Position numbers and translations under genes: made by a program. The notes under the pieces were generated by a model. That model made no database searches. It saw only the letters and a list, made by a program, of their open reading frames with translations, and was not told where the DNA came from. Positions 953 to 36,700 of a stretch of DNA of 41,896 nucleotides are shown here, one piece after another (the stretch's first letter is position 1; each line of letters begins with the position of its first letter). The stretch comes from a virus (Duplodnaviria > Heunggongvirae > Uroviricota > Caudoviricetes): IMG/VR virus record IMGVR_UViG_2512047041_000010; one strand, given 5' to 3'.

Positions 953-1279
953 ATGACTAAAAATACTCGTTTTTCCCCCGAAGTCCGTCAACGGGCAGTC
1001 CGTATGGTTCTGGAAAGTCAGGGCGAATATGACTCACAATGGGCGACAATTTGTTCCATTGCCCCAAAGATTGGCTGTACACCGGAGACTCTGCGTGTCT
1101 GGGTACGCCAGCATGAGCGGGATACCGGAGGCGGTGATGGCGGGCTCACCACCGCTGAACGTCAGCGTCTGAAAGAGCTGGAACGTGAAAATCGTGAACT
1201 GCGCCGCAGTAACGATATCCTTCGCCAGGCTTCCGCTTATTTTGCGAAGGCGGAGTTCGACCGCCTCTGGAAAAAGTGA
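953..1279 (+). CDS. IS3-family transposase OrfA (HTH/leucine-zipper part)
   Basis: 108-aa ORF beginning [19 protein letters not shown], typical IS3-family OrfA; overlaps orfB start (ATGATG/TGA overlap at 1276..1279). Confidence 0.85.
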
Positions 1280-2166
1280 TGCCACTGCTGGATAAGCTGC
1301 GTAAGCTGTACGGGGTCGGACCGGTATGCAGTGAACTACATATTGCCCCGTCAACGTATTACCACTGTCAGCAACAGCGACATCATCCTGATAAACGCAG
1401 TGCCCGTGCGCAGCGCGATGACTGGCTGAAGAAAGAGATACTGCGCGTATACGATGGGAATCATCAGGTATACGGTGTGCGTAAAGTCTGGCGTCAGTTG
1501 TTACGGGAAGGAATCAGGGTAGCCAGATGTACAGTGGCGCGCCTCATGGCGGTTATGGGACTTGCCGGTGTTCTCCGGGGTAAAAAGGTCCGCACTACCG
1601 TCAGCCGGAAAGCCGTTGCCGCAGGCGACCGCGTAAACCGTCAGTTTGTGGCAGAACGTCCTGACCAGTTGTGGGTGGCTGATTTTACTTACGTCAGCAC
1701 ATGGCAGGGGGTCGTCTATGTGGCGTTCATCATTGATGTGTTTGCCGGATACATCGTGGGGTGGCGGGTCTCATCGTCTATGGAAACGACATTCGTGCTG
1801 GATGCTCTGGAGCAGGCGTTATGGGCCCGTCGACCGTCCGGCACAGTCCATCACAGTGATAAAGGTTCTCAGTATGTATCGCTGGCCTACACACAGCGGC
1901 TTAAGGAAGCCGGATTACTGGCATCAACAGGAAGTACTGGTGACTCGTATGACAACGCGATGGCGGAGAGCATCAATGGCCTTTACAAAGCGGAGGTAAT
2001 ACACCGTAAGAGCTGGAAAAACCGTGCAGAAGTGGAACTGGCCACACTCACGTGGGTGGACTGGTATAACAATCGACGATTGCTGGAAAGGCTGGGCCAT
2101 ACTCCTCCGGCAGAAGCAGAAAAAGCTTATTATGCTTCCATCGGAAACGATGATCTGGCAGCCTGA
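1276..2166 (+). CDS. IS3-family transposase OrfB (DDE integrase core)
   Basis: 296-aa ORF with DDE-type transposase features (WVADFTYV ... HSDKGSQY ... DNAMAES); recognised as IS629-like OrfB. Confidence 0.85.
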
Positions 2167-2604: not shown

Positions 2605-3087
2605 CTATCTGGTCAAAGTGTCGTACTGTTTTTCGCAGACTCTTCCGGCTTCGGCTGCCCGGTCAGCATACTCTGCCAGTTGTCTGTTTCTCTCGAGAGA
2701 TTTGCTGAGCACGTCGGCAAGCAAAACTCCGGTGTCTGCGGCTGACGACCCAGCGCCGACAATGGCGTTATACTGCCTGAGCTGCTCACGGATGGCAAAG
2801 AGTTGTTGCTGCAACCGGCCAGCGCTAGCGGCAGCATCAAGAGCATCATTGCGCGCCTGGTCGATCCTCTGCTGAGCTTCACGTTCATTGGTCACTTTCT
2901 CCTGTTCGTAGTACTGACGAACTTTGTCTTCTTCGGCTTTGCGGTCTTCTTCCGCCTGAGCATACCCGGCATCGTACTGGCGACTGCCGTGTATATTCCA
3001 GGCAACCACTCCTGATATGACCAGAACAGCAAGCACTGCCACGATAAGAAACTGTTTCCAGTATGCTTTTACGAATGCCCAGATCAT
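2605..3087 (-). CDS. Rz-like i-spanin (inner-membrane spanin)
   Basis: 160-aa ORF with N-terminal TM segment ([18 protein letters not shown]) and coiled-coil periplasmic part; start overlaps endolysin stop; last gene of the lysis cassette. Confidence 0.7.
2613..2849 (-). CDS. Rz1-like o-spanin lipoprotein embedded in the +1 frame of Rz
   Basis: Out-of-frame ORF wholly inside Rz; signal peptide [13 protein letters not shown] with lipobox, Pro/Ser-rich mature part. Start codon choice (2849) is an inference. Confidence 0.5.
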   Translation of the reverse strand: MMLLMLPLALAGCSNNSLPSVSSSGSITPLSALGRQPQTPEFCLPTCSANLSRETDNWQSMLTGQPKPEESAKNSTTL

Positions 3088-4708: not shown

Positions 4709-7700
4709 TTAACGTTCTTCCAGAGACTGAATCCGCTCTTTTATCTTATCCATTTCTCTGCGCTGCCATGCTGCCTCGATATAGAATAAGAGATCAGGTC
4801 TGACCCCCCATCTAGATCCTGCTGGCGTTATTTCAACGCGCTCAATGATGTCTTCCATTACCATCACTGGATTATCATCCTCATCAACAATGATGCTCCC
4901 GTCATTATCAGTCAGCGGCATTTCCCTTTGGCCAGTAATGACGTCATCATATACTGCGGGATAATCGTCATAGCAAAGAAAGGCATAGCGGCATGTTGTG
5001 CTTTCTTCTTCCATGAGTCCGTGAGAAATAAGAACATCACGAAGTTGCTGCGCGATTACACCATGATGTATCCTCGCCCCTTCTTCCCCCTTTATAGCGA
5101 CAGCGTTCAGCCATTTATAAGCGATATACCTGACGTCACCCCAGGCATCCAGCAATGCTTCGTCAGGAGAGACCGGCTCTGTCTTTAATGTTCCGTCACT
5201 GGTAACCACAGGATTGGAGCCAAGATAAACTGTCGAGAACCTGTTTCCCGGACCACCAAGAGCATTTACATTATCAAGATAAGGTTTAACATCTCCGTTC
5301 TCAAAAAGATGTTCGAGTGCGTTATATACCGCGCGACGTGGAGTACTGCTTCCGGAACCATGCAACGTTATCATTGCACCATCTGCTGAAGACGTTGTTT
5401 CACCGCCGCTAACGATTAATCTCTGAGCGGTAACATCATCAGACGGTACTTTCTTCGCAATAATGGCGTAATTACCCTCAAGTTTGACTTCCGCGCGAAC
5501 TTGTCCTGATGTACCTGCATGGACAGTCAGTGACTGGACGGCAACATCATCTGTGAAATCAACGGGTACAGGAACCGTCCTCACGCCTGACGTCGACATA
5601 AAAGTAGGAAGCGTTCTGTTAGGAGTGGCTCCGTAGACAAAATCCCTTGAAACAAATTCTTCCTGTTTAATTTTCACCCTGAAACAATACAAATCAGCCG
5701 GGTGACCATCGTGAACATAAGGATATTTTCTGTTGTTATCCCCTATGCTCCATGGGTTTAGAAAGTCTTCCCCACCGAAAATGTAGTACAGCCAGTTGTC
5801 TTTGATACAAACTGAACCAACACCAACCGCAGAGTTAACTATTCCGCCCTGATAAATCTGATCAGTAACATTAACCCACTCTACATTATCCAGACTCCAC
5901 TCATTGACGTTAACTCTGGTCATAAATGTTCTTGGATAATTTCCTGCATAACGGTTATCAGGCTCTCCTCCTTCCCACTCACCAAATGCGCGCTCACTGC
6001 CAAAAATAACCAGCTCATCGCCAACTTTGGCAAAAGGAAGGTTTGAGTGATGAACATTATTTGGGAAGCGAAGAGAATTCCATGATGTACCTAAATCAGA
6101 GCTTCTGTGCAATGAACTACCGGGTTGAGTACTTAATGTCCCCCTGGTCGTCAGATACAGAATGCCATCATAATATTTTACACATGGCTCAGATGCATTC
6201 GCCTCATATTCTGCAGGTATGCGTCTGCGAACAAAGCTACCAGGAGAACCGAAAGCATCAGAGAAATAGAGTATCCCAAGCTCGCGTGGACCAATATCAC
6301 CATTATGGTAGCCAACAGCAAAACTGTTATCGCTAATCGTCGCAAAACTGTGAATCTCAGTAACAGGAGTGCTTCCGTCAACAAAAGAAGGAATAGTTCC
6401 AAGACTGGTTTTTCTCCATGGTGACGAGTGAAATGATGTGCCAAAACTCCAGTATCTACCCTCGTTATTCTGATCCACATCCTGGGTATTTTGCGTCGTA
6501 ACTGTAAAGGTATTTTTATCAATAACAGTAGTCACCGTCATATTCCCGGTAACACCTGTAACACCAGAGTTTGAGAAGTTGACAAAATCACCAGCAAATA
6601 ATCCGTGATCAGTAATGCGAATATAAGCGACTTGCTGATTTGCTGCTTTCGTTATACCACCATAAACGCGAAGGCTGCGACTCATTGGGCGATCCCACAA
6701 CTCTGCAACCTGCAGTTTATTTCCGCTCACGGTCCGCGTCTCAATTACAGCAAAAAGGCGATTTCTGACAACCCCCATACTCATGCAGTGATAGTTAACT
6801 GTGGGATAGTTTTCATGTAAATCTGTAAGCCATTCCGGCGTTGTCCAGGTCTTCCCGTCATCTCCTGAGCGAACCCATGCAACATGGAGGTTATTTACAC
6901 CATGGCGGTCTCCAGCCATAAAAGGCGCATAGATGACATTGTCATATACAAACGTTTTATCCTGCGTCCAGGCGTTGTACCACGGTGTATCTGTAATTTT
7001 AAATAACTCTCCCTGGATAAAATCTTCAGAAGCATAAAAAAGAGGCTGGCCCGGTATTCTCTCAAATAAAAAACGAGCATTTTTAAATCGACTGACATCC
7101 GGAAGAGTTGATACTTTAAAAGTAAGCCCTAATCCGTCAATTTTATAACCTGGAGATGAGGCTTCAAGGCACGCGCTTATTGCAGTGGAATCGTCATTTA
7201 TACCATCACCAACAGCTCCAAAATCTTTGGGGCTAATAGCATCACGCATTTTATCCTGGAACGTTCGGTACACAGCCCCAGAACCATACTGAATAAACCA
7301 ACCAAAACCACCAACAACCCCGGCGATTGCAGCATCGACATAATTACGCATTGAGCGATTATTTACAGCGTCCTGCTCAAATGATGGATCTGCAAGGTTA
7401 GAAATTTTGTTTTGCTTTGCATCGTAATATTTTGCAAGCAAAGATGGTTTCATCAATGCACGTCTGAACCACCCAAAACATTGCTGGATCAGCATCGTCA
7501 GGTAGTCAAAGGCATCTTCATGCACTTCGGGGAAAAATTTTCCCTGATTGCGAAGGTCTGTCTCCTGCACTACATCAAGCACACGATCTATCGTAATTCG
7601 CCATCCAGTAGCAAGCGGAGACGGAAGAACCACAGAACCGCCACTATAAGTGCCCGCCCCAGTTACCGTATAACCGGTATCCAGAACCAATTCTGTTACG

Positions 7701-7828
7701 TTCCCGTTCAGGTCAGACACCTGAACAACCAGGTCTGATTTTCTGAAAATTCGAAAAGTATACGGAAACGATGTCGTAACGCCGTTACCGGTGTATTCGT
7801 TGTGGTCAACTTCGGTTGAGACCGTCAT
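4709..7828 (-). CDS. tailspike/tail fibre with sialidase-like beta-propeller domain and C-terminal peptidase S74 intramolecular chaperone domain (putative endosialidase)
   Basis: 1039 aa. N-terminal block MTVSTEVDHNEYTGNGVTTSFPYTFRIF recognised as a phage tail-fibre anchoring domain; two perfect Asp-boxes (SGDDGKTW, SSDLGTSW) and an xRIP motif (FERIP); C-terminus (SDGTLKTEPVSPDEALLDAWGDV...ARIHHGVIAQQL) resembles the self-cleaving chaperone of endosialidases and T5 L-shaped tail fibre. Confidence 0.7.
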   Translation of the reverse strand: MTVSTEVDHNEYTGNGVTTSFPYTFRIFRKSDLVVQVSDLNGNVTELVLDTGYTVTGAGTYSGGSVVLPSPLATGWRITIDRVLDVVQETDLRNQGKFFPEVHEDAFDYLTMLIQQCFGWFRRALMKPSLLAKYYDAKQNKISNLADPSFEQDAVNNRSMRNYVDAAIAGVVGGFGWFIQYGSGAVYRTFQDKMRDAISPKDFGAVGDGINDDSTAISACLEASSPGYKIDGLGLTFKVSTLPDVSRFKNARFLFERIPGQPLFYASEDFIQGELFKITDTPWYNAWTQDKTFVYDNVIYAPFMAGDRHGVNNLHVAWVRSGDDGKTWTTPEWLTDLHENYPTVNYHCMSMGVVRNRLFAVIETRTVSGNKLQVAELWDRPMSRSLRVYGGITKAANQQVAYIRITDHGLFAGDFVNFSNSGVTGVTGNMTVTTVIDKNTFTVTTQNTQDVDQNNEGRYWSFGTSFHSSPWRKTSLGTIPSFVDGSTPVTEIHSFATISDNSFAVGYHNGDIGPRELGILYFSDAFGSPGSFVRRRIPAEYEANASEPCVKYYDGILYLTTRGTLSTQPGSSLHRSSDLGTSWNSLRFPNNVHHSNLPFAKVGDELVIFGSERAFGEWEGGEPDNRYAGNYPRTFMTRVNVNEWSLDNVEWVNVTDQIYQGGIVNSAVGVGSVCIKDNWLYYIFGGEDFLNPWSIGDNNRKYPYVHDGHPADLYCFRVKIKQEEFVSRDFVYGATPNRTLPTFMSTSGVRTVPVPVDFTDDVAVQSLTVHAGTSGQVRAEVKLEGNYAIIAKKVPSDDVTAQRLIVSGGETTSSADGAMITLHGSGSSTPRRAVYNALEHLFENGDVKPYLDNVNALGGPGNRFSTVYLGSNPVVTSDGTLKTEPVSPDEALLDAWGDVRYIAYKWLNAVAIKGEEGARIHHGVIAQQLRDVLISHGLMEEESTTCRYAFLCYDDYPAVYDDVITGQREMPLTDNDGSIIVDEDDNPVMVMEDIIERVEITPAGSRWGVRPDLLFYIEAAWQRREMDKIKERIQSLEER

Positions 7829-7931
7829 GTTAAATCTCCAGATAGTCGCAGCACCCGTTGCGCCGCATATCTGGTTATTCTATTACCTGAAAAACCACAT
7901 ATGGATAGAAAGACTGTAAATACGAATAGAT

Positions 7932-7948
7932 ATTACCTTTCAGGTAAT
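7932..7948. promoter_or_regulatory. operator-like 17-bp palindrome ATTACCTTTCAGGTAAT
   Basis: Perfect inverted repeat of the ATTACC-N5-GGTAAT family, upstream of the LexA box and the small antirepressor-like gene; same core as the site at 27053. Confidence 0.55.
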
Positions 7949-7984
7949 TTGCAAAACGTGCTGGATAGCAAACAAATTATTTGC

Positions 7985-8004
7985 TACTGTATAAATATAC
8001 AGTT
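7985..8004. promoter_or_regulatory. LexA (SOS) box TACTGTATAAATATACAGTT overlapping a putative promoter
   Basis: CTGT-N8-ACAG with an AT-rich spacer, 18/20 match to the E. coli consensus TACTGTATATATATACAGTA; lies 20 bp upstream of the ATG at 8024 and contains a TATAAAT -10-like element. Confidence 0.75.
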
Positions 8005-8023
8005 ATTGCATGGAGAAGATAAG

Positions 8024-8281
8024 ATGCAGCAGTATCACTATCCACTGGAAGACGGATTTACCGAAAGGATTCACACGCCGGGAGGCGTCAGGTCACTGGT
8101 GGAGGGATCGCACTTGATGAAATTACTCCGGGATCTCGATAAGGATGGATTTAATGTCGATGGCCCACTTGCCGAACTGACTGCACTGATTAACTACGTC
8201 ACCAGCTCACAGATGTCTATGCAGGATCTGCAAACACATCTCGACTATTGTGCCGAACAATTACGAAAACAAACCAGATAA
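8024..8281 (+). CDS. small antirepressor-like protein (paralogue of the C-terminal domain of the downstream Bro-N antirepressor), probably SOS-inducible
   Basis: 85-aa ORF with SD GGAGAAG; about 35-40% identity by eye to the last ~70 aa of the 8597..9307 product (shared IHxPxGV, LMxLL, DGxxVxG, QTH blocks); LexA box immediately upstream. Confidence 0.6.
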   Translation: MQQYHYPLEDGFTERIHTPGGVRSLVEGSHLMKLLRDLDKDGFNVDGPLAELTALINYVTSSQMSMQDLQTHLDYCAEQLRKQTR

Positions 8282-8311
8282 GATTTGAAATTACCAATAG
8301 GAGTGCTTATA

Positions 8312-8328
8312 TTTACCTTTGCGGTAAA
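8312..8328. promoter_or_regulatory. operator-like palindrome TTTACCTTTGCGGTAAA
   Basis: Same TTACC-N5-GGTAA architecture; nested inside a larger inverted repeat AGGAGTGC...GCACTCCT. Confidence 0.5.
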
Positions 8329-8360
8329 TTTACATCGCACTCCTCTTGTGCCATAGTAAT

Positions 8361-8440
8361 CGGGCACTGGCAAAATCCAGTGCCGGGATTGGCGTCCCGG
8401 GTTACTAAGTGGCGCATACCACGCCAGACGTGGTTTTTTT
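8361..8440 (+). ncRNA. putative small structured RNA upstream of the antirepressor gene (possibly c4/antisense-type regulator)
   Basis: No ORF; stem-loop GGCACTGG/CAGTGCC, second stem CCGGGA/TCCCGG, then intrinsic terminator CCACG-ccaga-CGTGG + TTTTTTT (8419..8440). Carries ACTAAGTGG, which recurs at the antirepressor RBS, with its complement CCACTTAGG in between. Boundaries are approximate. Confidence 0.3.
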
Positions 8441-8596
8441 ATGCGTTAAGCACAGCTATATCCGAATTATGGTGGGCTGGGCAGGGGTCCGAAAGGACGC
8501 CGGTACCACTTAGGCCGGTACGCCAACCTTGTCCAGTTCACCACCAGTAATTGGCGTTGCGGTGGTGATTAAAATCACTAAGTGGAGATAACCACC

Positions 8597-9307
8597 ATGG
8601 CTAATGCTCAAACTGCCATCTTCAAATTTGAATCTGTTAACCCTATCCGTTCCATCATTATCGATGGCCAACCATGGTTTGTAGCCCAAGACGTTTGTAG
8701 TGCGCTGCGTATCCAAAACGTCACCCAAGCACTTGAAAAACTGGATGATGATGAAAGGTCTATGTTCAACATAGGGCATGAACATCGTGCAATTTTTGAC
8801 AGCCGAGTAAAAGAGATCAACATTATCTCCGAGTCAGGCCTCTACACACTGATCCTCCGCTGCCGCGACGCAGTGACACCAGGCACTACCCCCTACCGCT
8901 TTCGTAAATGGGTTACAGGTGAGGTTCTTCCTCAGATCCGCCGCACCGGAAGTTACATTAAAAACTCGCTCCCGCAGGAAGAGCGCATAAAGATGGTTGC
9001 CGACCAGGTAGCCAGCGCCACAGCATCAGCAGTGATGCAGGCAATGAAGGTAGAGAACAAAACCTACAGCGCCCCGCTGAAGCCCGGCTACCGCAGCCTG
9101 ATTCACTCGCCGTCTGGTGTTCTCGGCCTGACGGAAAACTCACTGCTGATGAATCTGCTGAACCAGTTACAGGAAGACGGGCACGACGTATCGGGCGCGG
9201 CGGCGGAGGTGACCACCATGTTCTGCTACATCGTCGGTGTGAGTAAATGCCTGCGTGATATCCAGACCCACGCGGAATACATCAACGACAAGGCAGGGTT
9301 CTTCTGA
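8597..9307 (+). CDS. phage antirepressor (Bro-N N-terminal domain plus C-terminal Ant domain)
   Basis: Start at ATG 8597, preceded by SD GGAGA; N-terminal FESVNPIRSIIIDGQPWFVAQDVCSAL is Bro-N/KilA-N-like; C-terminus homologous to the 8024..8281 product. Confidence 0.75.
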   Translation: MANAQTAIFKFESVNPIRSIIIDGQPWFVAQDVCSALRIQNVTQALEKLDDDERSMFNIGHEHRAIFDSRVKEINIISESGLYTLILRCRDAVTPGTTPYRFRKWVTGEVLPQIRRTGSYIKNSLPQEERIKMVADQVASATASAVMQAMKVENKTYSAPLKPGYRSLIHSPSGVLGLTENSLLMNLLNQLQEDGHDVSGAAAEVTTMFCYIVGVSKCLRDIQTHAEYINDKAGFF

Positions 9308-9378: not shown

Positions 9379-9395
9379 ATTACCTCAAGGGTAAG
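9379..9395. promoter_or_regulatory. operator-like palindrome ATTACCTCAAGGGTAAG
   Basis: TTACC-N5-GGTAA family site about 60 bp upstream of the 9454 start codon. Confidence 0.5.
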
Positions 9396-9453: not shown

Positions 9454-10086
9454 ATGAGAACAAATACAACAAGAAAAGCGATGCCATACATTATCCCAGA
9501 AGCAGATTTCGATAGAAAACTGAACATGTCTGAGAAGAACACTAGTCACACCGAAAGCTACTTAGCGAAAGGTGTGGTTGATTTCGTTCTTCCGGGATTC
9601 ACAACACCTTATGGTTATCGCCTTGTAAAATCTTGTAATGGCGATCATTACAGAATGATTACTACCAGCGATACTCCAGAAACGGTGTATGCGGTTAAGT
9701 TAATCTTTCGGGAAGATATCGTCGAAGCCAAAAGAACATGTACGCAGATCATGGTATGGCGTACGCCTAATGTTATTCATGACCGTGCTGTTCATGGTTT
9801 GCCTCAGATTTTTTTTCAGTTCTTCCTAGAGCAATATGCGATCGTTGTATCTGATGAGCAACAAACAATCGATGGGAGAAGATTCTGGGAAAGAATGATT
9901 TCTTGGGCTATAAACACCCCAGGATATAATGTATACGTTTCAGATGGCTCTGAAGAAGATAGACCTCTTAGCTTCATGACATCATGGGATGATTTCTATA
10001 GCCAGTGGGCTGATTTCTGTTGGGGCAGTGATAAAGATGTGCATACCCACAGACTACTGGTTATAAGCAAAGATAAACTGCATTAA
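9454..10086 (+). CDS. hypothetical protein, 210 aa, no recognisable domain (AT-rich moron)
   Basis: Strong SD GGGAGG 7 nt before the ATG; followed by an intrinsic terminator; lower GC than flanking structural genes; no motif I can assign. Confidence 0.6.
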   Translation: MRTNTTRKAMPYIIPEADFDRKLNMSEKNTSHTESYLAKGVVDFVLPGFTTPYGYRLVKSCNGDHYRMITTSDTPETVYAVKLIFREDIVEAKRTCTQIMVWRTPNVIHDRAVHGLPQIFFQFFLEQYAIVVSDEQQTIDGRRFWERMISWAINTPGYNVYVSDGSEEDRPLSFMTSWDDFYSQWADFCWGSDKDVHTHRLLVISKDKLH

Positions 10087-10090
10087 TAGA

Positions 10091-10113
10091 AGCCCGCAGC
10101 GCGGGCTTTTTTG
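10091..10113 (+). terminator. rho-independent terminator
   Basis: AGCCCGC-agc-GCGGGCT followed by TTTTTT. Confidence 0.75.
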
Positions 10114-10184
10114 TGGACGAAACAAAAGTCAGTGCTACACTCATTGACGCCACATTGAGGTGGCTTATAGATGGAAATTTCACA

Positions 10185-10346
10185 ATGAAAAAAGCATTTG
10201 CTGCACTGTTCGTTTTGTTGTCTCTGGTAGCTTCAACTCAGGCCTTTGCCGGTCGTTGTCAGCACGACAGCGACACTGCTGCTGACGGCTCCCGCTGCGG
10301 TGGGCGTTCTGCGGATTCCCGCCCGGGTGGCGGTGGCATTCGTTAA
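10185..10346 (+). CDS. small secreted protein (53 aa; signal peptide plus ~31-aa Gly/Cys-containing mature peptide)
   Basis: MKKAFAALFVLLSLVASTQAFA signal peptide with AxA cleavage motif; followed by hairpin GGCCGCGAAAGCGGCC; weak SD, so confidence is moderate. Confidence 0.4.
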   Translation: MKKAFAALFVLLSLVASTQAFAGRCQHDSDTAADGSRCGGRSADSRPGGGGIR

Positions 10347-10369
10347 AAACAAGGCCGCGAAAGCGGCCT

Positions 10370-10381
10370 GTGACATGTCAC
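10370..10381. repeat. perfect 12-bp palindrome GTGACATGTCAC (copy 1 of 3)
   Basis: Identical 12-mer also at 28088..28099 and 30353..30364; overlaps the stop codon of the minus-strand lipoprotein gene and abuts a GC hairpin. Confidence 0.8.
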
Positions 10382-10758
10382 GCAACGCAATTATTACCGC
10401 GCCATGTAACATTTTTAATAATCTTATCAGCACCAAACTCAACGTAAACAGAGCAACTGAAATGGAGTGTATAACCGCCATCAGTTGTTGCGTATGTGTT
10501 TGAATATATAGTATTACCAATTAGATTAGACGTAGTATTATACGTTGTGGTTTGTGGTACGTTATAACTACCAGAGCTTGAGTAAACATACACTCTGTTT
10601 CCATCTGGAGATGTAAGCTCTCCCTGAGGATACCCCCACTGCTGAACCATTGCGTCTATACTCTGCCCGCGCCACGTAAGCATATTTCTTTCAAACTGTG
10701 CAGCTGACTGGCATCCAACGAGAAGCATAAATCCAAAAATCAAAAATACTTTTCTCAT
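10378..10758 (-). CDS. phage lipoprotein (possible superinfection-exclusion/entry-exclusion type)
   Basis: Start taken at MRKVFLIFGFMLLVGCQ (lipobox LVGC) with SD AGGGGT; Thr/Ser/Tyr-rich mature part; sits between virion genes and the moron island. Confidence 0.6.
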   Translation of the reverse strand: MRKVFLIFGFMLLVGCQSAAQFERNMLTWRGQSIDAMVQQWGYPQGELTSPDGNRVYVYSSSGSYNVPQTTTYNTTSNLIGNTIYSNTYATTDGGYTLHFSCSVYVEFGADKIIKNVTWRGNNCVA

Positions 10759-10977
10759 AATTACCCCTATCATGGAAAAACAGCACCAATCCACAAATTA
10801 ACTAGTTATTTTATTATTCTTCCGAACAATACAATTCCGAATACTACAAAGCCGAACCATGCCGCTGCACGCAACAGAGATTCCAATTGAAACCCATTTT
10901 TATCAAAATGTATGAATAGCATAAAAACGCTGCACATATTAGTACAATAAAAGTTATTTGAACCATCATATCTCCTT

Positions 10978-23019: not shown

Positions 23020-23070
23020 CTTCTTTCTCCATTAGTGGGTCTGTTACGACCCACAGGTTAATAACAGGCG

Positions 23071-27031: not shown

Positions 27032-27069
27032 TTGACATTTAACGCACAAATTATTACCTTTCAGGTAAC
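27032..27069 (+). promoter_or_regulatory. putative promoter (-35 TTGACA) with overlapping operator ATTACCTTTCAGGTAAC
   Basis: Consensus -35 hexamer at 27032..27037; the operator (27053..27069) covers the -10/+1 region; oriented toward the tRNA. Confidence 0.5.
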
Positions 27070-27390: not shown

Positions 27391-27467
27391 GTGGCATTAG
27401 CTCAGTTGGACAGAGCAACCGCCTTCTAAGCGGTTGGTCGCAGGTTCGAATCCTGCATGCCACGCCA
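27391..27467 (+). tRNA. tRNA-Arg (anticodon UCU)
   Basis: 77-nt cloverleaf: acceptor GTGGCAT/ATGCCAC, anticodon stem ACCGC/GCGGT with loop CTTCTAA, T-arm GCAGG-TTCGAAT-CCTGC, encoded CCA end. Confidence 0.9.
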
Positions 27468-29649: not shown

Positions 29650-30242
29650 TGATTACCATCCTGACGTTCTTTGAGTCGCTTCCTGGCTGCTGCTATGCGA
29701 TCAGCAATTGTCACATTCACATTAACATCCAGGCGTTCTTTGAATGCGTTGACGTCGACGTGCTTACCAATCAGTTCGAGGTTCTTCACCTTGTCAGGCC
29801 ATTTAATTTTTTTGAGGATTGTCTCTATCGAATCCTCGTTCATGTTCATGATGGTCGATGACAGATCAAAGCCGCTAAGCGTAGTGCGCCAGATTTTCGG
29901 CCACTCGCGGATTGGCTTAAGGCTCCCATCGTCGTTGAGGATGTCGATCACGTCCATCTGGTCGATCTCCACCAGGCGCATGAGAACGTAATCAGCACTG
30001 ACGCGCATTCGTTTGTTGCGCTCCTCCATCAACTCGGCAATCCGTTTTTGAATGCGTTCATCGCGCATCATGACACTGGCTTTAACTGCCGCTGTATTTG
30101 GGGAGAATCCTGCGTTAATCGCTGCCTGAGTCTGGTTTTCAGGCGTTTTGATGTATGACTGGCAATAAGCCTCCTGCATTGCTGTTAGTGGCTTAAATTG
30201 CGTTGATTTGCGTTTATAGGTTTTAGGTTCAGCAGGCATCAT
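29646..30242 (-). CDS. terminase small subunit
   Basis: Start taken at MMPAEPKTYK with SD GGTGG; DNA-binding-like N-terminus; directly upstream of the large subunit. Confidence 0.65.
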   Translation of the reverse strand: MMPAEPKTYKRKSTQFKPLTAMQEAYCQSYIKTPENQTQAAINAGFSPNTAAVKASVMMRDERIQKRIAELMEERNKRMRVSADYVLMRLVEIDQMDVIDILNDDGSLKPIREWPKIWRTTLSGFDLSSTIMNMNEDSIETILKKIKWPDKVKNLELIGKHVDVNAFKERLDVNVNVTIADRIAAARKRLKERQDGNQ

Positions 30243-30249
30243 AACCACC

Positions 30250-30278
30250 GTGGTAATAGTTACCGTTGTGGTAATAGT
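30250..30278. repeat. direct repeat GTGGTAATAGT x2 in the terminase small-subunit leader
   Basis: Identical 11-mers at 30250..30260 and 30268..30278, between an upstream terminator and the start codon. Confidence 0.6.
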
Positions 30279-33516: not shown

Positions 33517-33595
33517 TTTACCCCTGAGGTAATTAAAAACCACATAATACACGAAATCAATAGATTTTAGAATATTTTATTACCCAACAGGTAAT
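33517..33595. promoter_or_regulatory. internal promoter region with two operator palindromes (TTTACCCCTGAGGTAAT at 33517..33533, ATTACCCAACAGGTAAT at 33579..33595)
   Basis: Two TTACC-N5-GGTAA sites bracket a minus-strand promoter-like sequence (-35 TTGATT, 17-bp spacer, -10 TTTAAT); a minus-strand terminator (GCGCGATAGCGC + TTTTTTT, about 33596..33625) lies just upstream after the P-like gene. Confidence 0.5.
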
Positions 33596-35524: not shown

Positions 35525-35541
35525 ATTACCTTTGAGGTACG
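35525..35541. promoter_or_regulatory. operator-like site ATTACCTTTGAGGTACG (imperfect)
   Basis: TTACC-N5-GGTA architecture between the terminator after the Cro-like gene and the zinc-finger gene. Confidence 0.4.
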
Positions 35542-35595: not shown

Positions 35596-35826
35596 TCATG
35601 AGTAGAAGAAGTATGCCAGTTCTGCTTTTGAGCGCAGCCATTGTCTTGTTTTACAGGCTTTAAAAAGCCCATTCATCAATACTTTACCTGGCATTTTGCG
35701 CTTACCTGTTAAGTGAGTCTGGATATAGTGACTCGTCGTTCCGGCTTCCTGTGCGAAGGCTTCACGCTCATCCGGAGTAAGTGCAAGCCAGTGCTTTTTG
35801 AAATCGAAATGTCCGTTATCGCTCAT
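35596..35826 (-). CDS. Cro-like repressor (YdaS/DUF1019-type HTH)
   Basis: 76-aa HTH protein divergent from the repressor gene across a three-operator region; first gene of the replication-side early operon. Confidence 0.6.
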   Translation of the reverse strand: MSDNGHFDFKKHWLALTPDEREAFAQEAGTTSHYIQTHLTGKRKMPGKVLMNGLFKACKTRQWLRSKAELAYFFYS

Positions 35827-35860: not shown

Positions 35861-35926
35861 ATTCACCCATAAGGTAACAAAAATCAAGGATAGTTACCTA
35901 TGAGGTGCATTTACCTGTTGGGTAAT
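35861..35926. promoter_or_regulatory. OR-like region: three adjacent operator sites (ATTCACCCATAAGGTAAC, TTACCTATGAGGTGC, TTTACCTGTTGGGTAAT) with divergent promoters
   Basis: Three TTACC-N5-GGTAA-type palindromes (one perfect, two degenerate) between divergent HTH genes; minus-strand promoter-like -35 TTGTTA / -10 TATTAT overlaps the leftmost site. Confidence 0.6.
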
Positions 35927-35980: not shown

Positions 35981-36565
35981 ATGAAAAGTATCCAGGACGT
36001 CCGCAGGCAAAATCTCAACGACTTGATCGACCGTGAATTCAATGGTGTTCAGACGCGGATGGCAGAAAAACTTGGAACTCAGGCAAATCTGGTAAACCGC
36101 TGGGCTCTTGGCAAGAAGGTTATCGGCGACCAGGTTGCGCGAAAAATTGAAGCTGCCGCCAATAAACCACGTAACTGGCTTGATATCGATCGCTCGCTTT
36201 CTCAGGAAGGTTTTCAGCCTGTCGGCCCAAGCGACATTGGTCAGCTGGCGGCTCACAACCTGGAACGCTGGATGAGCGAAAGCCGCGACCTTTCAACACA
36301 GGGAAAACTTCACCGCGCATCCGGCGTCGCCCAGGTGACAATCAGCCGCCTGTTAAACAATGAGGTCAGCGTTTCCATTTCCACCCTGGAGAATGTTGCA
36401 TCCGCATTCGGGCGTCACGGCTATGAATTACTGATTCACCCGCACGACCCTGCGACCATCAACTATGACCGCTCGCGCTACGCATTGTTACCCGAAACCG
36501 AGAAAGCAAAGATCGAAAGTTACATTGAATTTGTCATCAACCAGAACGAAAAAAGCAAAAAATAA
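35981..36565 (+). CDS. CI-like prophage repressor, double-HTH type without LexA-like autocleavage domain
   Basis: 194 aa with two Cro/C1-type HTH segments (QTRMAEKLGTQANLVNRW and GKLHRASGVAQVTISRLL); no Ala-Gly/Ser-Lys peptidase S24 signature; flanked by operator clusters on both sides; own terminator downstream. Confidence 0.6.
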   Translation: MKSIQDVRRQNLNDLIDREFNGVQTRMAEKLGTQANLVNRWALGKKVIGDQVARKIEAAANKPRNWLDIDRSLSQEGFQPVGPSDIGQLAAHNLERWMSESRDLSTQGKLHRASGVAQVTISRLLNNEVSVSISTLENVASAFGRHGYELLIHPHDPATINYDRSRYALLPETEKAKIESYIEFVINQNEKSKK

Positions 36566-36621: not shown

Positions 36622-36700
36622 ATTACCTTACGGGTAATTTTTTTAACTCATATCTATTGACACCAAACCAAATAAGCATAATTATTACCTCAACGGTAAC
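36622..36700. promoter_or_regulatory. OL/pL-like region: operators ATTACCTTACGGGTAAT (36622..36638) and ATTACCTCAACGGTAAC (36684..36700) flanking a promoter (-35 TTGACA at 36657..36662)
   Basis: Perfect and near-perfect TTACC-N5-GGTAA palindromes; consensus -35 with an ATAATT -10 candidate overlapped by the second operator; drives the rightward recombination/integration operon. Confidence 0.6.

Follow-up and report, generated by a model that had tools for sequence, protein, structure and literature searches.

How could the SOS response induce a prophage whose repressor seems to lack an autocleavage domain? This question is raised by a 41,896-nucleotide stretch of viral DNA (IMG/VR record IMGVR_UViG_2512047041_000010; hereafter the window, meaning the whole stretch), in which a small gene, ant, lies just downstream of a LexA box. 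An earlier note on this DNA had proposed that SOS induction goes through an antirepressor instead of repressor cleavage, by the logic known from Gifsy-type phages and coliphage 186, and that this logic was found here in a different phage backbone. We consider it likely that the window encodes two adjacent antirepressor circuits, one of the SOS-controlled type of Salmonella phage SPC32H and the other of the immI type of phages P1 and P7, both aimed at a non-cleavable repressor, Rep.

The LexA box and ant are located as follows:

7985..8004: LexA (SOS) box, TACTGTATAAATATACAGTT, which matches the E. coli consensus TACTGTATATATATACAGTA at 18 of 20 positions (mismatches at positions 10 and 20)
8024..8281, + strand: ant, encoding an 85-amino-acid antirepressor that is the orthologue of SPC32H Ant; the open reading frame (ORF) starts 20 nucleotides past the LexA box, with GGAG 7 nucleotides before the ATG

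The box is the sole 20-mer in the window with at most three mismatches to the consensus, and 100 dinucleotide-preserving shuffles produced no such 20-mer. A looser scan of the window gave no second credible LexA box, and neither the RNA module nor the Bro-N gene (both described below) was found to have one upstream. Two matches to CTGT-N8-ACAG, at 23041 and 27581, were rejected as LexA boxes because their spacers are rich in G+C and they fit the 20-mer consensus poorly. When the window is compared to phages phiV10, TL-2011b, and SPC32H, the columns of the box align exactly and the flanks diverge. Enterobacter phage Tyrion likewise has a LexA box ahead of ant, and a Klebsiella phage has one with a single mismatch in the core. 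Across Salmonella, Escherichia, and Enterobacter phages, the distance from the box to the start codon of ant is constant, in contrast to the flanks and the tailspike genes, which vary. The claim of a near-consensus LexA box on the promoter of the small gene was borne out, with the end of the box 20 nucleotides before the ATG. In coliphage 186, one arm of the LexA box (TACTGTATGTTTATACAGTA), TACTGT, is annotated as the -10 element of promoter p95. Because of this precedent, the likeliest promoter for ant is TGGATA (7962..7967), a 17-nucleotide spacer, and TACTGT (7985..7990), so that the putative -10 element would overlap the LexA box.

The product of ant belongs to a characterized family. It is 88% identical (by tblastn) to the product of a gene annotated as "ant: anti-repressor protein" in Salmonella phages SPC32H and SPC32N, and it matches chain E of PDB entry 5D50, "Anti-repressor protein" (phmmer, E = 4e-47). 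Homologues were found by tblastn in 35 records of our phage collection, all of which are epsilon15-like phages (from Escherichia, Salmonella, Enterobacter, or Klebsiella). The gene lies between the tailspike gene and a gene for an 824-amino-acid protein, and SPC32H has ant in the same slot. A longer ORF (7901..8281, 126 amino acids) was rejected: it would include the LexA box, and the solved Ant chain, of 86 amino acids, aligns from residue 2 of the protein that starts at 8024. A Pfam match of Ant to DUF724 was dismissed as noise (E = 0.004; 17.6 bits, as compared to a cutoff of 38.4). The small Ant family is labeled "hypothetical protein" in RefSeq genomes of E. coli and "unknown function" in PHROGs (phrog_450), so it is under-annotated despite the crystal structure of the Rep-Ant complex (5D50).

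The presumed target of Ant is encoded far from ant, next to a divergent gene:

35981..36565, + strand: rep, encoding a 194-amino-acid prophage repressor, homologue of SPC32H Rep, without an S24 domain
35596..35826, - strand: Cro-like gene (76 amino acids), divergent from rep; similar to phrog_35, "transcriptional repressor" (E = 6e-13)

Rep had been described as having two helix-turn-helix (HTH) domains and no recognizable LexA/S24 autocleavage domain. One HTH domain is clear (Pfam HTH_3 at residues 106-147); the other, at residues 21-61, is weaker and falls below the threshold. The lack of a recognizable S24 domain was confirmed: Pfam gave no match to Peptidase_S24 in Rep, and when we compared E. 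coli LexA and lambda CI to the whole window with tblastn, the best E value was 3. In addition, residues 1-190 of Rep align with residues 2-197 of 5D50 chain A (phmmer, E = 3e-42), which is a full-length match, and no match to a protease domain was found. Rep also matches a C-terminal fragment in the PDB (5D4Z, E = 3.5e-20). Rep is 43% identical to SPC32H Rep. In the phage collection, 36 of the 37 records with Rep homologues are epsilon15-like, and the exception is a partial match in a Pseudomonas phage. Among the E. coli members of the group, Rep is at least 98.5% identical to that of the window.

Kim and Ryu reportedly found in 2013 (J Virol 87:11775) that LexA binds the operator of ant in SPC32H and that Rep stays uncleaved, and the SPC32H Rep-Ant work behind PDB entries 5D50 and 5D4Z is said to be that of Kim et al. 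in 2016 (PNAS 113:E2480). As described in later papers, SOS and the self-cleavage of LexA lead to antirepressor synthesis in Salmonella prophages including SPC32H, and the repressor is then inhibited by protein-protein contact (PMC7380047). SPC32H Rep binds DNA as a tetramer, and an Ant tetramer binds two Rep dimers and breaks up the Rep tetramer (PMC9638917); the C-terminal tetramerization domain of Rep doubles as the Ant-binding domain (PMC9986798).

If the window phage works in the same way, then in a lysogen, Rep would keep the early promoters off, and host LexA would occupy the SOS box at 7985..8004, which overlaps the putative ant promoter, and keep ant repressed. After DNA damage, RecA would become active, LexA would cleave itself, and ant would be transcribed. 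Tetrameric Ant would then bind the C-terminal domains of Rep and convert the DNA-binding Rep tetramer to inactive dimers, as in SPC32H, and the lytic genes would be turned on without proteolysis of Rep. This LexA/Ant/Rep switch is not a discovery, because it has been solved to atomic detail in the same phage genus. Its logic was already known, and finding it here is a rediscovery of the SPC32H system, not the logic of Gifsy or 186 moved to a new backbone. As to the earlier proposal, orthology with the characterized SPC32H system upholds the logic of antirepressor-mediated SOS induction; the proposal was incomplete on the control of the Bro-N gene, and the novelty of the backbone did not hold.

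Just downstream of ant is a second antirepressor gene, with a Bro-N domain. The small gene product had been called a paralogue of the C-terminal domain of this protein, and it is: Ant aligns with residues 155-228 of the Bro-N protein (41% identity over 74 amino acids, E = 2e-15). The C-terminal 77 residues of the Bro-N protein also match 5D50 chain E directly (E = 3e-13). TL-2011b, Tyrion, and the Klebsiella phage encode the same fusion of a Bro-N domain to an Ant-like domain, and every full-length Bro-N antirepressor that we examined in the epsilon15-like group has the Ant-like domain at its C-terminus. In phiV10, the corresponding gene (record L001, 3766-4445) is truncated inside the Ant-like domain by what looks like a frameshift: it encodes 195 amino acids and is followed by a 29-amino-acid ORF annotated as "hypothetical protein." Judging from this sequence, phiV10 may be without a functional second antirepressor. 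In the Klebsiella phage (ST11-OXA245phi3.2; record L006, 2351-2611 and 2926-3615), the small Ant has the motif DGHDVSGAAAE, which is typical of the C-terminal domains of Bro-N proteins, where the other small Ants have DGFNVDGPLAE. This suggests gene conversion between the two paralogues in that phage.

Phage ZX5, a close relative from E. coli, has an Ant that is 100% identical to that of the window (an unannotated "hypothetical protein") and a Rep that is 99% identical. The ZX5 lysogen is inducible with mitomycin C, and overexpression of its Bro-N antirepressor reduces lysogeny by about 1,000-fold (PMC9782041). The published study of ZX5 overlooked the small Ant and tested the Bro-N protein alone (PMC9782041).

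We scanned the 315-nucleotide spacer between ant and the Bro-N gene with Rfam and for promoters and terminators. The spacer and the Bro-N gene contain these features:

8285..8313, + strand: promoter-like site 1, TTGAAA-17-TATATT (promoter scan)
8313..8327: TTACC-N5-GGTAA palindrome, between the two promoter-like sites of the RNA/Bro-N operon
8329..8357, + strand: promoter-like site 2, TTTACA-17-CATAGT, with a predicted start at about 8364, where position 1 of the isrK model falls
8364..8440, + strand: IsrK-like RNA (Rfam isrK, RF01394; 67.7 bits, gathering score 50); the match takes in the terminator hairpin and the T run
8389..8395, + strand: a1, TTGGCGT, a copy of a C4 target within the IsrK-like element
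8405..8412, + strand: b1, CTAAGTGG, the other C4 target copy within that element
8418..8434, + strand: stem of an intrinsic terminator, followed by seven T (terminator scan)
8465..8548, + strand: C4-type antisense RNA (Rfam C4, RF01695; 66 bits, gathering score 45)
8506..8513, + strand: b', CCACTTAG, in a hairpin loop of the predicted fold of C4
8520..8526, + strand: a', ACGCCAA, a segment of C4
8551..8557, + strand: a2, TTGGCGT, C4 target on the Bro-N leader
8578..8585, + strand: b2, CTAAGTGG, C4 target on the Bro-N leader
8597..9307, + strand: 236-amino-acid antirepressor with an N-terminal Bro-N domain (Pfam, E = 5e-20) fused to an Ant-like C-terminal domain (residues ~155-231)

The b' segment of the C4-type RNA is exactly complementary, over 8 nucleotides, to both b1 and b2, and a' is exactly complementary, over 7 nucleotides, to both a1 and a2. 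Furthermore, b2 overlaps the Shine-Dalgarno sequence of the Bro-N gene (AAGTGGAG), which is 9 nucleotides before the ATG at 8597. The region around this start reads CACCATGG, and no upstream ORF ends there. We found no ORF between C4 and the Bro-N start codon, and no leader ORF similar to orf45 or icd. An ORF of 100 amino acids with a TTG start (8248..8550) and the phiV10 feature "similar to SF0880" overlie the RNA genes, and we regard them as spurious. The terminator scan found no terminator between the ant stop codon and 8418, which includes the gap between ant and a1/b1.

The earlier note had assigned the Bro-N gene, too, to the SOS circuit of ant. This did not hold: the gene is without a LexA box of its own, and upstream of it are its own promoter-like sites, the IsrK-like RNA with a1, b1, and the terminator, and a C4-type RNA that is complementary to the ribosome-binding site of the gene. 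These features indicate that the Bro-N gene is under separate control of the P1 immI type, which the earlier reading overlooked.

The pair of isrK and C4 matches from Rfam is also present in phiV10, TL-2011b, Tyrion, and Klebsiella phage ST11-OXA245phi3.2, and there were no isrK or C4 matches at the SPC32H locus. The b' segments and their partners differ among these phages:

Window: b' CCACTTAG; b1 and b2 CTAAGTGG
phiV10: b' CCTTTTAG; b1 and b2 CTAAAAGG
Tyrion: b' CCTTTGTAG; b1 CTACAGAGG; b2 CTACAAAGG
Klebsiella phage: b' TCCGTTTAG; b1 CTAAACGG; b2 CTAAGCGG

In Tyrion, a' is also changed (to AGACCAA), and both a1 and a2 are changed in step, to TTGGTCT. Across these four phages, 95% of the cells in the alignment of C4 with a2/b2 are standard pairs, as compared to 22-48% if the partner is slid by 1-3 columns, and there are four compensatory pairs. 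In the same four-phage alignment, 93% of the positions of C4 with a1/b1 are paired. To judge by these sequences, the pairing partners of C4 change together, and the pattern is unambiguous.

The specificity of C4 also varies among phages with nearly the same repressor. HEMP4 has the b' of the window (CCACTTAG), and TL-2011b has the b' of phiV10 (CCTTTTAG; the phiV10 locus is L001, 3454-3780). It is exactly at b', b1, and b2 that the window and HEMP4 part from phiV10 and TL-2011b, even though Rep in the E. coli members is at least 98.5% identical to that of the window. This suggests that the epsilon15-like phages of E. coli form P1/P7-like immI immunity groups over a common main repressor.

We propose that the second circuit is a separate transcript that would begin after ant and would contain, in order, a1/b1 (in the IsrK-like RNA, with a leaky terminator), C4, and the Bro-N::Ant gene with its a2/b2 leader. 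In a lysogen, the a' and b' segments of C4 would pair with a2 and b2 and mask the Shine-Dalgarno sequence, so the large antirepressor would remain untranslated, and this circuit would not be under direct SOS control. The large protein would be synthesized where C4 is missing or does not match, that is, early in infection or upon superinfection of a lysogen with a different b'. Its Ant-like C-terminal domain would then neutralize the resident Rep, which would amount to an anti-immunity function. The window would then encode two proteins with one presumed Rep-binding domain and two different controls.

Both circuits may also respond to the main repressor. The palindrome TTACC-N5-GGTAA, with at most one mismatch, occurs 13 times in the window (0.85 expected) and 18 times in SPC32H (0.48 expected). 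The sites in the window, at 7933-7947, 8313-8327, 9380-9394, 27054-27068, 30242-30274, 33518-33594, 35526-35540, 35863-35925, and 36623-36699, cover essentially all of its intergenic regulatory regions and cluster between rep and cro. In an alignment of four phages, the half-sites never vary and the spacer is unconstrained. Single palindromes adjoin the putative -35 element of ant (7933..7947), the IsrK/C4 promoter (8313..8327), and a 210-amino-acid ORF downstream of the Bro-N gene (9380..9394). Three of the putative operators deserve a description:

7933..7947: palindrome TTACCTTTCAGGTAA, which may be an operator for Rep (or Cro) and ends 38 bp before the LexA box; kept upstream of ant in SPC32H
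35863..35925: three palindromes (at 35863, 35894, and 35911) between rep and cro, putative right operator; SPC32H has an equivalent triplet in its rep-cro spacer
36623..36699: two palindromes (at 36623 and 36685) between rep and the operon of recombination genes, putative left operator

The palindrome is probably the operator for Rep (or Cro). If so, the promoters of ant and of the immI-type module would also respond to the main repressor, by analogy to the response of the c4-icd-ant operon of P1 to C1.

Other explanations for the first circuit do not fit these observations as well. The LexA box might be a chance palindrome, or it might serve the tailspike gene, which starts at 7828 on the opposite strand, 157 bp from the box. 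However, the shuffled sequences contained no match, the spacing to the ant start codon is constant across phages of Salmonella, Escherichia, and Enterobacter even though their tailspikes differ, and the geometry is the same as at the p95/LexA site of 186, so we consider this explanation to be extremely improbable. Alternatively, Rep might be inactivated by RecA-stimulated cleavage or by some other protease, in which case the LexA-controlled gene could be an accessory such as a DinI-like modulator. There is general precedent for this in lambda and P22, and we found no other support for it. Against it, neither Pfam nor tblastn found an S24 domain, Rep aligns end to end with the solved Rep of SPC32H, which is without a protease domain, and Ant is not similar to the DinI-like Tum of 186. 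We think that direct cleavage of Rep is very unlikely.

The relationship between the two antirepressor genes is harder to judge. They might belong to a single SOS circuit, with an ant-Bro-N operon expressed from the LexA-controlled promoter and with incidental RNA elements: the genes are on the same strand, 315 nucleotides apart, there is no terminator from the ant stop codon to 8418, and both proteins share the Ant domain. However, between the genes are the intrinsic terminator (8418..8434 plus the T run) and two promoter-like sites. The pairing of C4 with a2/b2 over the Bro-N Shine-Dalgarno sequence is kept by compensatory changes, which is hard to explain without RNA-gated translation. In TL-2011b and some E. 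coli prophages, ant and the RNA module are split by insertions of ~0.8-1.1 kb, and SPC32H achieves SOS induction with ant alone. A single operon seems improbable to us. It is also conceivable that the two circuits are coupled by feed-forward: ant transcripts that are derepressed from LexA would continue through a1/b1 as far as the IsrK terminator, and the resulting ant-IsrK RNA would titrate C4, unlock the Bro-N::Ant gene, and amplify the inactivation of Rep. In favor of this, a1 and b1 are exact decoys for a' and b' of C4, the gap between ant and a1/b1 has no terminator, and of five relatives with both ant and the RNA module, four have them side by side. Also, IsrK of Gifsy-1 raises the translation of anrP by ~140-fold in trans and goes up in the first minutes of peroxide stress (PMC4825925). 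On the other hand, the adjacency is broken by the insertions just mentioned, and read-through transcripts would also yield more C4. We view this coupling as possible but unlikely.

A joint reading would combine several of these ideas: SOS read-through would sponge up C4, Rep would act on both the ant and IsrK/C4 promoters via the palindromes, and polymorphism of b' on an otherwise identical Rep would make immunity groups like those of P1 and P7. Such a combination is speculative, and we doubt that it holds as a whole. If it were true, related phages in one host, whether co-resident or superinfecting, could induce each other, and the immunity groups would lie among common E. coli prophages.

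Several points weigh against the proposal that we prefer, of two separately controlled circuits aimed at Rep. For the window phage, we take LexA binding, the position of the ant promoter, and the contact between Ant and Rep by analogy from SPC32H; the Ant-Rep interface in particular is assumed from a Rep with just 43% identity. A scan for consensus promoters, with a threshold of 9 of 12 matches, called no promoter at the LexA box. The Rfam model for the a1/b1 region (c4-a1b1, RF03163) matches at 8351..8403 with 44.1 bits, which is below its gathering score of 46.7. The covariation sample is four sequences, and the shuffle statistics are indicative only. Finally, because there is no terminator between ant and a1/b1, SOS transcription from ant may enter the second circuit, in which case the circuits are perhaps not independent.

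The window is an epsilon15-like (Uetakevirus) prophage of E. coli, and SPC32H is in the same genus. The region from the tailspike gene to the gene for the 824-amino-acid protein is 91-98% identical to Escherichia phages HEMP4, phiV10, TL-2011b, ZX5, and phiv142-3, and both phiV10 and SPC32H are classified as Uetakevirus, that is, as epsilon15-like podoviruses. The "different phage backbone" of the earlier note was not borne out: the backbone is that of the genus in which the switch was described and crystallized. At least 80% of the stretch from ant to the Bro-N gene was found in 186 of 5,426 complete E. coli genomes. About 530 E. coli genomes carry the region. Because this module is common, its induction logic bears on how prophages behave under DNA-damaging antibiotics.

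Other features of the window are:

4709-7828, - strand: tailspike (1,039 amino acids), with End_N_terminal, End_beta_propel (E = 3e-233), End_tail_spike, and a Peptidase_S74 chaperone
953-2166: IS3-family insertion sequence, with orfA at 953..1279 (HTH_Tnp_1), orfB at 1276..2166 (rve), and an ALIL frameshift pseudoknot at 1234..1350 (Rfam, 116 bits)
27391-27464: tRNA gene (Rfam, 73 bits), with anticodon loop CUUCUAA, which would read as Arg-UCU
9454..10086: ORF of 210 amino acids, cargo, phrog_1349 (unknown function), with its own palindrome upstream
10113..10346: cargo protein of 77 amino acids, with an N-terminus like a signal peptide
10378..10794, - strand: putative lipoprotein of 138 amino acids, cargo

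The tailspike has the full set of endosialidase domains and lies in the slot of the tail fibre or tailspike genes of phiV10 and SPC32H. Because the domain set is complete, this prophage is probably specific for the K1 (polysialic acid) capsule. SPC32H has an annotated tRNA-Arg (2788..2861) near the start of its head-gene operon. None of the three cargo ORFs (9454..10086, 10113..10346, and 10378..10794) had a match in Pfam or PADLOC. The cargo slot (9454-10794), which is between the Bro-N gene and the genes for injection proteins, varies among the relatives; in TL-2011b, it holds a YafO toxin and a P22-type arc/ant/sar immI.

How do these circuits compare to known systems? Autocleaving repressors of the LexA or lambda CI type differ from Rep in that no S24 domain was found in Rep or in the window. 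LexA-controlled antirepressors were reportedly described by Shearwin in 1998 (Tum of 186) and by Lemire in 2011 (Gifsy and Fels phages). The logic of those systems is the same, with a non-cleavable repressor and an antirepressor gene that is repressed by LexA, but they differ from the window in repressor family and phage backbone. The likeness to 186 extends to the promoter, where the LexA box doubles as the -10 element of p95 and its sequence is nearly identical to that of the window. The proteins differ: Tum is DinI-like and has no sequence homology to Ant. The BLASTP match between them (16.5 bits, E = 0.06) was rejected, and Ant is analogous to Tum, not homologous.

The RNA/Bro-N locus is also homologous to the isrK-orf45-anrP locus of Gifsy-1, where IsrK in trans turns on translation of the antirepressor gene that lies downstream (Hershko-Shalev et al. 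2016, PMC4825925). In both, an IsrK-family RNA with a terminator (leaky in Gifsy-1 and presumed to be leaky in the window) is followed by a processed RNA region and then by an RNA-gated antirepressor gene. Unlike Gifsy-1, the window is without an orf45-like ORF that is translationally coupled (by an AUGA overlap) to the antirepressor gene, and the target repressor is not the same. The C-terminus of Gifsy-1 AnrP has no detectable similarity to Ant, because a tblastn search of the phage collection with Ant matched no record outside of the epsilon15-like phages.

The immI region of P1 and P7, with the c4 antisense RNA, icd, and ant1/2, was reportedly analyzed by Citron and Schuster in 1990. In P1, full repression of ant requires the C4 antisense RNA as well as C1 (PMC8198154). 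The window shares with P1 and P7 a C4-family RNA (RF01695) that pairs via a' and b' with upstream a1/b1 and with downstream a2/b2 over the ribosome-binding site ahead of the antirepressor gene. Both also have an operator-like site for the main repressor at the promoter, and in both, close relatives share the main repressor and differ in C4 specificity. In contrast to P1 and P7, the window is without an icd-like leader gene, so that b2 lies on the antirepressor's own Shine-Dalgarno sequence; the antirepressor is a fusion of Bro-N to an Ant-like domain, not P1 Ant1/2; the phage is a small podovirus that integrates, not one whose prophage is a plasmid; and the module lies directly downstream of a LexA-controlled paralogue. 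With SOS-gated and antisense-RNA-gated antirepressors side by side and with C4 specificity that varies over a constant Rep, one would expect a podovirus lineage to show heteroimmunity in the style of P1/P7, along with cross-talk between prophages. We found no description in the searchable literature of such heteroimmunity in a podovirus lineage with paired antirepressors of this kind.

The closest comparison is to SPC32H. It has the same epsilon15-like backbone and the same gene order, with the tailspike gene, a divergent ant, convergent injection-protein genes, and rep divergent from a cro-like gene. Its ant lies between the tailspike and injection-protein genes, with a LexA box equally far upstream; its Ant is 88% identical; and its Rep is homologous over the full length and also without S24. 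SPC32H differs in that its Rep is just 43% identical to that of the window, and neither an IsrK/C4 module nor a Bro-N::Ant gene follows its ant. The window represents an E. coli orthologue of the SPC32H switch, joined to a P1-type immI module that SPC32H is without.

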